A DNA stretch of 64,000 bases from Longimicrobiales bacterium (GTDB lineage Bacteria; Gemmatimonadota; Gemmatimonadetes; Longimicrobiales; Gaopeijiaceae), in the NCBI GenBank assembly GCA_965248195.1, contig CBDFIQ010000001.1, forward strand, positions 480,001-544,000, in the 5' to 3' direction. Of the stretch, positions 12,452-26,227 are shown one piece after another. Numbering within the stretch: the first letter of the stretch is position 1; every line of letters begins with the position of its first letter. The notes under the pieces are model-generated. The model ran no database searches, was not told the origin of the DNA, and worked only from the letters and a program-made list of their open reading frames with translations. The translations under genes were made by a program, and so were the position numbers.

Positions 12452-13076
12452 TGCTGCGCGGCTAATGTGGTGACCGCGGGCGAAGCGCGCGAGCGTGATA
12501 CCTACCGCGACAGTAGCGATCGCTTGTTAGACAGCGCTGAACCCGAGGTCGGCACTTGGATAGTTACCGCCGACCTCGCCTCCGTGGGCGGCCAGGACCT
12601 CTAGGACGAAATCAGTCTTGCCGTTCAGGTACGCAAGCCGGACGGTTCCGACTTCCTCCGCAAGGCGTTGCTTCAGTACCGCGTACTGACGGGCTATCTC
12701 CGAGTCCCCTCGGAGGGCATCGCGGAAGATCAACGTGTTGCGGGAGTAGCGAGAACTGGGTTCAGCCAACGAAACGTGGTGCTTTCGGAGGCCGTCGAGC
12801 GTGCGGGGGAAATAGTGTCGGTCCGGCAGGTCATCCTTCGCGCGATACTCGAAGCCCAGCGACTCTAGGGTCGGGACCACGGCCAGGGCCTCCACGAGAT
12901 CTGGAACCCCCACGAGAATGTCGACGATGGGCTTGGCCTCTAGTCCTGGAACCGACGTACTGCCCACGTGATCCACAGAGATGATCCACCGCGGGAGCCA
13001 GCGGATGAGTTCTCCACGAACCCGCTCGAACTCGAGCGGAACCTGTCAACGACAATGGGACACTCTACGGGATTAA

Positions 13077-16180: not shown

Positions 16181-16324
16181 TGCTGCGCGGCTAAGATGCC
16201 CTCCGCAAGCGGAGCGCGCGAGCCTGATGCTTACCGCGACCGCAGCAATCGCTTGTTAGAACGTGCCTAGCAACCTTTGTACTACAGATGCACTCTTCTC
16301 AACAAAACACCCGGGAATCATCAC

Positions 16325-18732: not shown

Positions 18733-18850
18733 TGCTGCGCGGCTAATGTGGTGACCGCAAGCGAAGCGCGCGAGCCTGATGCCAACCGCGACTGCAGCAA
18801 TCGCTTGTTAGGCAGCTGGCGGTGATCGGCCAACTCGCAACGCTCGGGAC

Positions 18851-21142: not shown

Positions 21143-22150
21143 TTAGAGAGCAATATCCTGTGTGGTGAGGGAAGGGATGGGAGGATTGATGTAGACGGCC
21201 TCCGGGAGCGGTTTGGGCTTCGGCACACCTGTGACGAAGCGTTCGGGATGAGCGGCCCATGCTTCGCGGAGCACGGATTTCCTGCCGGCAATGACCTGAT
21301 CGGCGTTCCCGAAGTGGACCTGCTCGGGGGTTAGCATCGAGATACCGCCATGGCGGTGCTCGGCATTGTACCAGCGGAAGAACGATCGACACAACGTCTT
21401 GGCCTGGCCCTGATCCCCGAACCGCCCGGGAAACGAGGGATGGTACTTCAAGGTTTTGAACTGAGCCTCGGAAAACGGGTTGTCATCCGACACCTGAGGC
21501 CGGCTCAACGAGCGAGTCACGCCGAGGTCAGCGAGAAGTTGAGCGGTGCATTGGCTCGTCATTGGAGCTCCCCGATCCGAGTGCAGGGTCAGGACCCGGG
21601 GCTGGACGCCATGCTTCAGGCAGCTCTGCTGGATCAACCGGCCGGCCAGGGCCGAGTTCTCCCGGTCCGCCACCATCCAGCCCACGACGTAGCGGCTGTA
21701 GATGTCCATGATGACGTAGAGGTAGTAATAGCTCCACTTCTTCGGCCCGAGTAGCCGCGTGATATCCCAGGACCACACCTGGTTCGGCGCCGTGGCCATC
21801 AACTCGGGCTTCTTGTACTCGGGATGGGTGCGCTGCGCCCGGCGTTCCTGAACCGGCACCTCGGAGGCCAGAACACGATACATCGTGCGTTCGCTGCACA
21901 GGTAGACCTCTTCGTCGAGCAGCGTGGCCACCACCTCGGCGGGTGAGCGGTCCACGAACCGCTCCGAACACAGCGTGTCGAAGACCTCGCCTCGTTCCGT
22001 CTCGCTCAATGCCCGGGCGGGCGTCGGGCGGGGCTGCCGTTGCCCGGTCGATGGGCCTCGACGACGGTAGAACGTCGATCGGGAGACCTCGAGAGCCGCG
22101 CACGCCGGTTTTACACCGACGTGCTTAGCCAGCTCATCGGCCGCCTTCAA
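21143..22150 (-). CDS. IS3-family transposase OrfB
   Basis: Same protein as other copies. Confidence 0.9.
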   Translation of the reverse strand: MKAADELAKHVGVKPACAALEVSRSTFYRRRGPSTGQRQPRPTPARALSETERGEVFDTLCSERFVDRSPAEVVATLLDEEVYLCSERTMYRVLASEVPVQERRAQRTHPEYKKPELMATAPNQVWSWDITRLLGPKKWSYYYLYVIMDIYSRYVVGWMVADRENSALAGRLIQQSCLKHGVQPRVLTLHSDRGAPMTSQCTAQLLADLGVTRSLSRPQVSDDNPFSEAQFKTLKYHPSFPGRFGDQGQAKTLCRSFFRWYNAEHRHGGISMLTPEQVHFGNADQVIAGRKSVLREAWAAHPERFVTGVPKPKPLPEAVYINPPIPSLTTQDIAL

Positions 22151-22596
22151 GAGTTCGTCCCGTCGTCGAGGCTTATCCCCAGCAGCCCCGCAACTTTTCC
22201 CTGCACGTCGATGATCAGGTGTGCCTTCCTGAGCTCATTCTCGAGCCGTGCGTTTTGCCGCTCCAGCTTGCGTACCTTCTCATCCAGCGGATTCCGCTCC
22301 GGCTTGCGGCCGCGTTTCTTCGACAGGGCCTTCAGCGACCCGCTATGCGCCGCCTTGCGCCACGTCGTCAGGTGCGACGAGTACAGGCCCTCGCGCCGCA
22401 GGAGCTGACCCACCTCGCCGGGCTCGGTGCACCGGTCCGCTTCTTCGACGATCCGCAGCTTGTACGATGGACTGAACCGCCGGCGTAGCGGCCTATCTAC
22501 TACCTCCGGGTCCGCAGGAGCTGCCGCGCTTCGCTTGGCCTCCCCGATTCCAGGGGCACTACCATTCTCTTCCATTCTCTCTCGCAGTCCCAACAT
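22147..22596 (-). CDS. IS3-family transposase OrfA
   Basis: Same protein as other copies. Confidence 0.85.
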   Translation of the reverse strand: MLGLRERMEENGSAPGIGEAKRSAAAPADPEVVDRPLRRRFSPSYKLRIVEEADRCTEPGEVGQLLRREGLYSSHLTTWRKAAHSGSLKALSKKRGRKPERNPLDEKVRKLERQNARLENELRKAHLIIDVQGKVAGLLGISLDDGTNS

Positions 22597-22966
22597 GTTC
22601 GTTTTCTCTGCCTTCGCCCTACTCTAATTCTTTGCGTGCTCCGTGTCTCACGTACGTTGGCAGAGAGGGCCGCGCTGGGATGAAACCTGAATAGATGCCT
22701 GAGTTCCTCGTGAGAGGAGACTCACCCAAGATCGGACGCGACGTTGGTACTGAAGGATGAAAAACGGAAGATGATCACGCAGGCCTTGAGCTACAGACCA
22801 GTGGACCGAGCCACCCCTCCGGGACCCCGGACGGGTAAGGGAGGGCTACGCCCTGTTGACTCCCTTCACCTTATAGATGCTGCGCGGCTAAGATGCCCTC
22901 CGCAAGCGGAGCGCGCGACCCTCCCGTTCTCGCGACTGCAGCAATCGCTTGTTAGATGGCGGCGGG

Positions 22967-23513
22967 GGTACGCTGACCCATGATAGGTAACACTTTGCTG
23001 AACCATGATGGGTGACAGTCTCAGATCCTAACATGGGCCTCCACAAGGAGGCGCCATGCCATGGTTGGAGACCGATCCCATGAACGAACGAAAGCGATTC
23101 ATTCTCGAAGCTGCCGCCGGCCTGTTCTCGCACACGGAGCTCTGCCTGCGTCACGGCGTCAGCCGTAAGACCGGCTACAAGTGGCTCGAACGCTACGAGT
23201 CTGAGGGACCCGACGGCCTCGGAGATCGCCCTCATCGTGTCCGGGCGCATCCACACACCACCGAGCCACACGTAGTCGATGCCGCCTTGGAACTCCGCGG
23301 ACAGCGGCGACGCTGGGGTGCCGACAAGATCCGCGCTCGGCTGCTGACTCTGCACCCTGACTGGAGTGTCCCCTCCGCCCGCATCCTCCACAAGTACTTC
23401 CTCCGCGGGGGACTCGTGAAGAAGCCGCGCAGGAGTCGTAGGCGTCCGCATCCAGGCAAGCCCACAGCTCCCTTCGACGCACCCAACGCCATCTGGTCGG
23501 CTGACTTCAAGGG
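22967..23513 (+). mobile_element. IS481-family element, 5' fragment (ORF from 23056, truncated by IS256)
   Basis: MPWLETDPMNER...GVSRKTGYKWLERY...WSADFKG. Confidence 0.9.
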
Positions 23514-24889
23514 GGTAGTGTCCCTAGATTTGTGTAAAAGCGGATAAGCTGGACAGGAGGGAAAGAAAAACGGAAGCTCCTCTGTTGTTGTTCACTGTCA
23601 CATGAACCCGGGAGTCCGGGTCTGCAGAGCAGGCTCGGAACCGGAGAGGAGCTTCCGATGCAAGAGATTGTGGAGATCGGTCGGGCCACGCAAGACGAGC
23701 TACGCGATGATTTGCGCGAGCTGTTTCAAGGCGCGATCCGGCTGACGCTCGAGATGGTGCTGGAAGAGGAGCTGAAGGCCATGGTAGGTGCACGCCGCTT
23801 CGAGCGGGTGGGAAGCCGGAAGGACCATAGGAACGGCACATACCTGAGGCGGCTGCTGACGAGCCTGGGGCAGATCGAGGTCGCCATGCCCCGGAGCCGG
23901 GACAACGGTTCGCCGGCCGACGTGATCGGCCGCTACCAGCGCAGGAGCCCCGAGCTCGACGAGATGATGGTCGAGGCGTATGTGAGCGGCGTGTCACAGC
24001 GCAAGATGGGCGACGTCACCGAGGCGCTGATGGGCGAGCGTGTTGGGCGCTCGACGGTGAGTCGTGTGGCAAAACGGCTCGACGAGGCCGTGGAAGGGCT
24101 GCGCCGTGCGCCGATCGAGGGGCCTCACCCCTATCTGTACCTGGACGCCACGTTCTTGGACGCCCGCTGGGCCCGCAAAGTCGAGAACGTGAGTGCGCTC
24201 GTGGCGTATGCAGTGGGCCCTGAGGGTCACCGACGGCTCCTGGCCGTCACGCTGGGCGCTGAGGAGTCGCAGCAGAGCTGGTCGGAGCTCCTCGAGCAAC
24301 TCCAGGACCGCGGCCTCGGCGGTGTCGAGCTCGTGATCGCCGATGAGCACGCAGGCCTGGCAGCTGCGGTCCGCCGCTTCCTGCCCGAGGCACGCCGTCA
24401 GAGGTGTACGGTCCATCTGCAGCGTAATGTGGGGGCGAGGGTCCCCCACCGCCTACGCAAGCGCGTGGCGCGTGAGGTCTCGGTGATCTTCCAGACATCC
24501 GGACTCGCCGAGGCGAAGAAGCTCCTGGGCGAGTTCGGCGCACGCTGGAAGAAGGAGCTGCCCGAGGCCGTGGAGGTCCTGGAGCGGGGCTTCGGGGCAG
24601 CGACGCAGTTCTACGCGTTCCCCGAGGCGCACTGGCCCCGGCTGCGTACCACCAACAGCCTCGAGCGGCTGCACGGCGAGATCAAACGCAGGATCAAGGC
24701 CGCCGGCGCCTTCCCGGACCGGGCCAGCGCCCTCAGGCTCATCACGGCCGTCGCACTCAGGACCACACACGTCTGGGGCGACCGGCGTTACCTCGACCTC
24801 TCACTCCTCCAGAAACAGGAGGTCGCCCAAGCAGCCTAGCCGAAGGCGAGGAGCTTCCTCCGCTTTTACACACAAATCGGGACTTGACC
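23514..24889 (+). mobile_element. IS256-family element with non-matching flanks
   Basis: Same 1376-bp element; no TSD. Confidence 0.95.
23658..24839 (+). CDS. IS256-family transposase
   Basis: Same protein as 3169-4350. Confidence 0.95.
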   Translation: MQEIVEIGRATQDELRDDLRELFQGAIRLTLEMVLEEELKAMVGARRFERVGSRKDHRNGTYLRRLLTSLGQIEVAMPRSRDNGSPADVIGRYQRRSPELDEMMVEAYVSGVSQRKMGDVTEALMGERVGRSTVSRVAKRLDEAVEGLRRAPIEGPHPYLYLDATFLDARWARKVENVSALVAYAVGPEGHRRLLAVTLGAEESQQSWSELLEQLQDRGLGGVELVIADEHAGLAAAVRRFLPEARRQRCTVHLQRNVGARVPHRLRKRVAREVSVIFQTSGLAEAKKLLGEFGARWKKELPEAVEVLERGFGAATQFYAFPEAHWPRLRTTNSLERLHGEIKRRIKAAGAFPDRASALRLITAVALRTTHVWGDRRYLDLSLLQKQEVAQAA

Positions 24890-25584
24890 GCCGAACTCAC
24901 GGAAAAGGCGAGTAAAGACGCGACGGGAGGCGGAGTAGGTGGTGCCCTCGAGCCCCTGGCAGGCGAGCAGATAACGACTGAAGCCATCCTGGACGGTGAG
25001 TGGGTAGCAGTAACAACCGTCGAGGGTCTTGAACTGACCCTTGAAGTCAGCCGACCAGATGGCGTTGGGTGCGTCGAAGGGAGCTGTGGGCCTGCCTGGA
25101 TGCGGACGCCTACGACTCCTGCGCGGCTTCTTCACGAGTCCCCCGCGGAGGAAGTACTTGTGGAGGATGCGGGCGGAGGGGACGCTCCAGTCAGGGTGCA
25201 GAGTCAGCAGCCGAGCGCGGATCTTGTCGGCACCCCAGCGTCGCCGCTGTCCACGGAGCTCCAAGGCGGCATCGACTACGTGTGGCTCAGTGGTGTGTGG
25301 ATGCGCCCGGACACGATGAGGGCGATCTCCAAGGCCGTCGGGTCCCTCAGACTCGTAGCGTTCGAGCCACTTGTAGCCGGTCTTACGGCTGACGCCGTGA
25401 CGCAGGCAGAGCTCCGTGTGCGAGAACAGGCCGGCGGCAGCTTCGAGAATGAATCGCTTTCGTTCGTTCATGGGATCGGTCTCCAACCATGGCATGGCGC
25501 CTCCTTGTGGAGGCCCATGTTAGGATCTGAGACTGTCACCCATCATGGTTCAGCAAAGTGTTACCTATCATGGGTCAGCGTACC
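24890..25584 (-). mobile_element. IS481-family element, inverted 5' fragment (ORF from 25495, truncated by IS256)
   Basis: Near-identical reverse complement of 22967-23513, extending to LFREFG. Confidence 0.9.
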
Positions 25585-25593
25585 GTGAGCACT

Positions 25594-25609
25594 GTCTAAC
25601 AAGCGATTG
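25594..25609 (+). repeat. attC inverse-core remnant in plus orientation
   Basis: GTCTAACAAGCGATTG matches the start of the family top strand. Confidence 0.6.
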
Positions 25610-25628
25610 AAATGAGGGAGCGTAGAAC

Positions 25629-26045
25629 GTGAATTCGGACCGAGCGGCCACCCCTCACCTTCCGCGCCCGGTTTTGCTCTTTTCCGGAGGCTGACGGTTT
25701 TGTCGTTGGTCGGCGCGGGTCGTCGCTAGGTTGGACCGCCACCAGGAGCTAGCGCTGCTTCCGCTCAGCGACGAAGAGGCTGGGCCTTTGCTGGCCTCCG
25801 TGCCGGAGGACAAGCGAGGGGAATGTTGGTGGCTCATACTCCGCGATGGCACTGCTGTCGAGGGGGATCTAGGTGGAGGAGTGATGCTCCTTGCGGAGAT
25901 GCGTCTCACCCGTCCGCTGGGCCGCGTCCTTCGCGCGGTACGACTCTCTCCGGTGATTGACGCGCTTGACAGGGCCTTGGCCCGGAACCGTGCGCGCCTC
26001 GGCCGCTTCGTCCCGGAGGGCCCCGCACCGCGGCGATATCCCTGA
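25629..26045 (+). CDS. DCC1/DUF393-like thiol-disulfide oxidoreductase with in-frame TGA at 25692-25694 (candidate selenocysteine)
   Basis: GTG 25629 with GGGAG RBS; reads PVLLFSGG*RFCRWSARVVARLDR...LALLPL; hairpin starts 11 nt after TGA. Confidence 0.7.
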
Positions 26046-26067: not shown

Positions 26068-26227
26068 ATTTAACAAGCGATCACTACCGACGCGGTAGCC
26101 ATCAGGCTCGCGCGCGGCGCTTGCGGTCGGCACATTAGCCGCGTAGCAGAGCCGGAGGCACACATCGCGTGCCGGAGACGACCGAGCACCGCGAAGCGGG
26201 CGGAGATCAATCGCAGATCCGTCCGGC
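26068..26227 (+). repeat. Degenerate attC site 9 in plus orientation with an insertion of about 58 bp
   Basis: ATTTAACAAGCGATC...CCGCGTAGCAGA [insert] AATCGCAGATCCGTCCGGC. Confidence 0.7.

Follow-up and report, generated by a model that had tools for sequence, protein, structure and literature searches.

An E. coli fdhF-type SECIS consists of a short stem, a bulged U and a loop containing G or GU, and in thioredoxin-fold chemistry the first residue of the active-site pair is the nucleophile and the second the resolving residue. The published bacterial SECIS model, in the part of the source covered, has a stem of 4–16 bp, a loop of 3–9 nt with G in the first two loop positions, a distance of 16–37 nt from the UGA and an energy of at most −7.5 kcal/mol (PMC13188914). 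DCC1 of Arabidopsis, a DxxCxxC protein, was reported in the covered part of a second source to reduce a protein partner (PMC7598583).

We analysed a 64-kb window, meaning the whole stretch of DNA under study (C1:480001–544000 of the source genome; coordinates given below without a contig are window positions), in which an earlier note had proposed a DCC1-like selenoprotein. The analysis indicated that the locus holds a single intact gene, that its UGA very probably encodes Sec, and that its product is predicted to be a DCC1-like oxidoreductase of thioredoxin-like fold with a U22-x-x-C25 active site.

The gene, its relatives and its mobile surroundings

The frame opened with GTG at 25629–25631 and comprised 138 codons with a single internal stop, TGA at codon 22 (...PVLLFSGG-TGA-RFCRW...), before the true stop, a second TGA at 26043–26045 (Table 1). 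ORF calling under table 11 yielded only a 104-aa piece starting at TTG 25731. The proposed extension of the frame beyond that called start to the upstream GTG, with a ribosome-binding site in front of it, was borne out by the GAGGGAG sequence, and many relatives likewise had a start-capable codon 21 codons 5′ of the TGA, often after a purine-rich stretch.

Table 1 Features of the predicted selenoprotein gene and of its surroundings (window positions unless a contig is given)
Feature	Position	Strand	Basis
DCC1-like oxidoreductase gene, predicted selenoprotein, 138 aa	25629..26045	+	PF04134, read-through frame
Shine-Dalgarno-like GAGGGAG	25614..25620	+	Sequence; 8 nt before start codon
In-frame TGA, inferred Sec22, UxxC position 1	25692..25694	+	Aligns to Cys in homologues
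Cys25, predicted resolving cysteine	25701..25703	+	Nearly invariant in relatives' alignment
SECIS-like element, loop CGGGU starting 21 nt after UGA	25706..25729	+	Fold; synonymous freeze in codons +6 to +12
Left-arm fragment of the genome's attC-like repeat, 16 nt	25594..25609	+	Same start as complete repeats
Decayed attC-like repeat downstream of the gene, lacking the right core	26068..26150	+	81% match, repeat positions 2-81
Truncated IS481-like element (context)	24866..25584	-	Pfam HTH/LZ_Tnp_IS481/rve; end set by second copy
Cut attC-like repeats in the window	12452-12530, 16181-16259, 18733-18811, 22878-22955	-	Window part of the nine
Cut attC-like repeats outside the window	C1 47133, 471295, 1081494, 1089251, 1103387		Rest of the nine

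Relatives were compared as DNA at 57 loci: the window, 1 same-genus locus, 11 genome loci and 44 metagenome loci. The TGA column was covered by 48 of them, of which 47 (window included) had TGA and 1 had TGC; the other 9 stopped short of the column. Exactly 116 codons followed the TGA at 40 of the 47 TGA loci. Loci L084, L085, L138 and L139 were TGA forms with only 92–93 codons after the TGA and the C-terminal tail kept, an apparent in-frame shorter variant. Named carriers were bins of Gemmatimonadota, Vicinamibacteria, Anaerolinea and Actinomycetota. Of 401 genomes of the host phylum (Gemmatimonadota, going by the nearest named relatives), 5 held a match to the subfamily of more than 200 bits, each with one TGA (these tallies include the unpublished genome G221, with one weak stop-free match and one selA match, on which no conclusion depends). 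The class of the Actinomycetota bin gave 18 matches in 301 genomes, 5 with TGA and 13 with Cys, and the class of the Anaerolinea bin had the gene in 1 of 201 genomes, namely that bin. Several relatives were broken or shortened (L022, L041, L076 and L079, with a fragment in L024), both same-genus matches of the subfamily included. A quick tree, built without the short forms L138 and L139, left 37 of 74 branches open; the TGA label needed 8 changes on it, of which strong branches forced only 2.

The gene was flanked by two pieces of the genome's 104-nt attC-like family (27 BLAST hits), both oriented opposite to the window's main array. These were recognized by sequence similarity, since a strict attC search that required pairing missed even complete repeats. 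The IS481-like element ended about 10 nt before the upstream piece, and the downstream copy was without its right-hand GTT core. The cassette-like position between attC remnants described in the earlier note was therefore real as to the pieces and weaker as to their state, with only a left-arm fragment upstream and a decayed repeat downstream. No integron integrase exceeded the cut-off in the genome (91.8% complete), and the only IntI-like match was a C-terminal integrase fragment at C1:1112697–1113260 (L088), about 600 kb away. Because both attC-like sites were incomplete and only this IntI fragment was found, the unit is not an intact cassette. The L088 fragment is followed by an IS256 end and lies near a second attC cluster at 1.08–1.10 Mb.

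Most relatives had no attC. L055, the nearest relative in the quick tree (support 96), had a complete attC-like site right after its stop, the same-genus L022 had an attC right end upstream, and L033 and a few others had left-arm starts only; no plasmid match was found for the gene. The gene is accessory and mobile, being patchy over four phyla, set in varied neighbourhoods and lying here beside decayed attC-like sites, and it was likely captured into a cassette array in this lineage. More tentatively, and with the balance of probability somewhat against it, the gene may be a Sec gene that spreads in the form of an integron cassette and carries its SECIS within the reading frame. It would then work only in Sec-capable hosts, its element would be read by SelB of at least four phyla, and elsewhere the gene would revert to Cys or decay.

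Insertion elements of the surroundings formed patterns of their own. Nine attC-like repeats all broke off at position 79, where the end of an IS110-family element (345-aa transposase; about ten near-identical full copies) cut them, a case of attC-targeted insertion. At 22955–23055 and again at 25496–25609, the distance from an IS481-like end to the attC left arm that follows was about 10 nt; the two junctions were in opposite orientations with IS256 between them, and two further copies of the end occurred elsewhere. An IS3-like two-ORF element at 21143–22596 (minus strand) interrupted the non-coding end of one IS110 copy. Outside the window, C1:1071378–1073597 contained a cluster of 17 tRNA genes, all on the same strand and packed into 2.2 kb.

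No sigma-70-type promoter or terminator match was found at the window gene. Since it has no such promoter match, sits among IS remnants and has relatives that are often broken, the window copy may be silent. It could even be a decaying, unexpressed passenger from a true selenoprotein family, as suggested by the IS end and attC fragment that have taken the place of its upstream region, by the broken same-genus copies and by a G-to-U change that weakens its stem compared with most relatives. We consider this unlikely, because the frame, the ribosome-binding site and the core of the element are intact and the same U is also present in L073 and L084. In addition, a 205-nt metatranscriptome contig, which may be DNA at its depth of 2.4, covered 25591–25795 with 2 differences, neither of them in the TGA.

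Predicted fold and chemistry

With the TGA read as C, the product matched PF04134 (DCC1-like) at 36.2 bits, above the gathering cut-off of 27.8; a genome scan reading through the stop gave 26.3 bits against the same cut-off, and NCBIfam (June 2026) held nothing better than E 0.27 for the read-through protein. The earlier placement of the TGA at the first Cys of DxxCxxC agreed with the Cys column and failed at the Asp, as Ser occupies position −3 relative to the TGA (FSGG-U); Asp was kept in TGA relatives such as L040, L084 and L133. Because this Asp is not present, we assigned the protein to a divergent DCC1-like subfamily and not to the canonical DCC proteins. Full-length Cys relatives carry the JGI name 'DCC family ... 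YuxK', and a separate canonical Cys DCC member was located in the same genome at C1:936163.

In the AlphaFold model (pLDDT 83.6, pTM 0.78), strand 1 was followed by a helix, with residue 22 immediately ahead of that helix. The model had no Foldseek match at E 0.001, and a sequence search found no solved structure (best E 0.12). Structural matches were weak but coherent, consisting mostly of GST N-domains, glutaredoxins and thioredoxins among 50 rows, with a GST N-domain as the best (Z 5.5, rmsd 3.0 over 78 residues); ArsD and CopG also appeared among the weak matches. Given Sec, it is highly probable that the predicted activity is that of a thiol-type oxidoreductase. In the mechanism we propose, the conserved G-rich element 11–35 nt after the UGA would be bound by SelB, delivering Sec-tRNA, and, in the manner of glutaredoxins, Sec22 would sit where the helix behind strand 1 begins. 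By analogy with known UxxC enzymes, the Sec22 selenolate would then attack a disulfide, persulfide or peroxide-derived substrate, Cys25 would resolve the selenenyl-sulfide, and a cellular reductant would recycle the enzyme.

The same UxxC might instead bind or sense a metal or metalloid, a function for which one could cite the ArsD and CopG matches, the loss of the family Asp in the window copy, and the finding that no partner reductase was conserved near the TGA loci among the neighbour ORFs profiled. However, most structural matches were to glutaredoxins, thioredoxins and GST N-domains, and the covered part of the Arabidopsis DCC1 source reports reduction of a protein target (PMC7598583), which makes a metal-binding selenoprotein quite improbable.

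Among the neighbouring genes, which varied between loci, 76 of 128 ORFs near the first locus set and 46 of 125, plus 2 added by hand, near the second were profiled, the two sets differing in flanks and cut-offs. Rhodanese or peroxiredoxin genes adjoined 7 of 37 TGA loci versus 0 of 19 Cys loci by the author's count, but this contrast was gone with a broad thiol/sulfur class (about 12 of 37 versus 5 or 6 of 19). ArsR-rhodanese genes with metallo-beta-lactamase genes stood beside the TGA form in L034 and L066, and a rhodanese-lactamase fusion with SBP56 stood beside it in L070. These neighbours weakly suggest thiol or persulfide redox upkeep as the likeliest job. A role in persulfide or peroxide detoxification is rather doubtful and only a lead, because the contrast vanishes with the broad class. 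Viewed as regions, L034:2315–4947, L066:2327–3768 and L070:317–3545 combine ArsR-rhodanese, metallo-beta-lactamase(-rhodanese), 1-Cys peroxiredoxin and SBP56 genes, a possible sulfur-detoxification neighbourhood.

Decoding of the internal UGA

The check for Sec machinery suggested in the earlier note found all four genes in the source genome: selA, selB, selD and selC (tRNA-Sec, at C2:1575603) all exceeded their cut-offs. The selD gene carries an in-frame TGA of its own, as do two FdhA-type genes. The TGA form occurred in 17 genomes, counting G062/G125 and G065/G291 once each (judged identical by their matching hit sequences and selA E-values), and selA was found in 15 of the 17; the other two had a TGA-type selD, one as a fragment only, and tRNA-Sec over the cut-off in one. 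This co-occurrence discriminates little, because selA is common in the host groups (317 of 401 genomes in the host phylum sample and 201 of 301 in the Actinomycetota class sample). By the same counts, Sec appears to be used very widely in these groups, which have been little studied. In the Actinomycetota class, Cys was the form in all 4 carriers in which neither selA nor selB was detected; 9 other Cys carriers did have one of these genes, and one TGA carrier, G708, gave no selB match.

The hairpin that had been described 11 nt after the TGA, with a bulged U and a G-rich loop, was confirmed in sequence and fold as written: the isolated 27-mer folded into a stem with a bulged U and the CGGGU loop at −7.2 kcal/mol. 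Hairpin stability was rejected as evidence for a SECIS, because the z-score against shuffles was −0.32 and 845 of the 3,775 arbitrary TGA contexts that had a Cys codon close by were followed by a hairpin of −7 or better in this genome, whose G+C content is 63%; an alternative fold reached −8.1 kcal/mol, and a longer stretch folded differently. A genome-wide motif-plus-hairpin scan for more selenoproteins likewise returned mostly noise. Over the same 31 nt the relatives had −11.2 to −17.5 kcal/mol, not all in the shape of the hairpin. In geometry the window element fits the published model, with a 5-nt loop 21 nt from the UGA, and its energy is borderline against the −7.5 of that model. The likeness to fdhF drawn in the earlier note held for the short stem and the loop and not for the bulged U, which was present in only 3 of 33 aligned copies (the window copy, L073 and L084); most relatives had G in its place and a plain 7-bp stem. 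This stem paired in 96.5% of cells across the 33 copies and was nearly invariant, with no compensatory change in any of them and a covariation score reached by 473 of 500 shuffles, and RNAalifold on the aligned copies preferred a different fold.

Evidence of selection came from 43 full-length TGA genes, dereplicated at 95% to 28 with DNA identities of 56–92%. The internal codon was TGA in 28 of 28, never TAA or TAG, and the terminal stop of the same genes varied (TGA 16, TAA 7, TAG 5). The pN/pS ratio was 0.24 over the 9 codons before the TGA, indicating that the upstream part is coding, and 0.32–0.37 downstream. Synonymous change was suppressed over the hairpin, where pS was 0.12 in codons +5 to +11 versus 0.57–0.58 further down. 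Fourfold third-position entropy was 0.27 bits at the 7 hairpin sites versus 1.32 bits at 73 others (p 1.2e-5), in a test whose range was fixed beforehand from the hairpin position; neither its sites nor its sequences are independent of one another. With L086 added to the Actinomycetota class, the majority third base of the element was kept at 17 of 20 comparable sites in TGA forms versus 25 of 50 in Cys forms. This RNA-level constraint at the expected place of a SECIS, relaxed in Cys forms, is the strongest evidence obtained.

The same data bear on the alternative, raised in the earlier note, of a plain TGY-to-TGA nonsense mutation that left a pseudogene or two separate short genes. Broken or shortened relatives and the position of the window copy among IS remnants might speak for it, but a chance mutation was rejected by the identical TGA in all 28 genes despite their divergence, by purifying selection both before and after it, and by the lack of a conserved downstream start codon (the TTG chosen by the gene caller was present in 2 of 28), and conservation of the TGA across relatives excludes the plain nonsense version; we give this alternative hardly any weight. 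The homologue comparison recommended in the earlier note pointed the same way: with the window excluded, 46 of the 47 related loci covering the column had TGA, coding was conserved on both sides, the downstream element was conserved, and Cys stood at the column in other homologues. A protein search returned 273 homologues; among the best 120 listed, 103 began after the TGA column, 14 had Cys and 3 had Trp, and a further 148 cluster representatives comprised 83 with Cys, 52 beginning just after the column, 2 with Trp, 1 with Tyr and 10 beginning later. Distant representatives (P0170, P0182, P0196, P0214–P0229 and others) also began after the CxxC column, and such late starts may be hinting at further Sec-type DCC clusters.

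Reading of the UGA as Trp (or Cys) by a changed code or near-cognate read-through, to which those Trp records and the UGA=Trp recoding reported for some Actinomycetota (in the covered part of the literature) might point, is extremely improbable and was rejected, because the gene itself ends in TGA in 16 of 28 cases, the only TCA-anticodon tRNA of the source genome is tRNA-Sec, Trp at position 22 would remove the nucleophile, and the Trp records share a 90% cluster with late-starting records, which suggests gene callers using another code. Taken together, the sel genes, the TGA loci and the conserved downstream element support the Sec reading, and as judged from sequence, Sec insertion at the UGA appears very likely.

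Comparison with described systems

PF04134 was without a row among the 119 prokaryotic selenoprotein families of a 2026 Table 1 (PMC13188914), a comparison that covered this table, with the BSepDB family table outside it. A literature search whose scope excluded subscription journals found no paper linking selenoproteins to DUF393, DCC1, YuxK or PF04134, titles and abstract openings gave nothing related on selenoproteins with integrons or Gemmatimonadota, and the covered main texts of PMC12013277, PMC7539508 and PMC2398784 contained no 'DCC'. The selenoprotein family is thus probably real, unlisted and of the ordinary UxxC type, and it brings no new mechanism, UxxC thioredoxin-fold selenoproteins being a common type in the published list. 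Were this true, PF04134 would join the prokaryotic selenoproteome, and many shortened 'hypothetical protein' records, such as the 103 late starters among the best 120 homologues listed, could be corrected. The Sec/Cys pair would mark the catalytic residue of a family without a solved relative by sequence and with little bacterial biochemistry found. As the element has hardly changed between bins of Gemmatimonadota, Acidobacteriota, Chloroflexota and Actinomycetota, it offers a test of one SECIS with distant SelB proteins.

The window gene shares with Cys-type DCC1-like proteins (PF04134; YuxK/DUF393; Arabidopsis DCC1) the CxxC column and the beta-then-helix start, and differs from them in having TGA for the first Cys and Ser for the Asp at −3. 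Its subfamily is set apart by a conserved GPAPRRYP-like tail and shares about 25–30% identity with the phylum's ordinary Cys copies. With integron cassettes and attC arrays lacking a linked integrase, it has in common the flanking attC-like pieces, but both of these are incomplete. Its element resembles the fdhF-type SECIS in the short stem and the G/GU-containing loop; unlike there, the bulged U is not conserved in the DCC1-like family, and the first loop base in the window copy is C, with G second. The FdhA-type and SelD genes of the same genome have UGA-to-loop distances of 18, 19 and 33 nt, and the window gene has one of 21 nt. The UxxC thioredoxin-fold selenoproteins of the covered part of the published list (Sec thioredoxin, glutaredoxin, DsbA-like and SaoT; PMC13188914) match the window gene in the UxxC, the Cys homologues, the element inside the coding sequence within 16–37 nt and the predicted Grx/Trx-like fold, whereas the DCC1-like protein, by its absence from that table and from the NCBIfam matches, belongs to a different sequence family.
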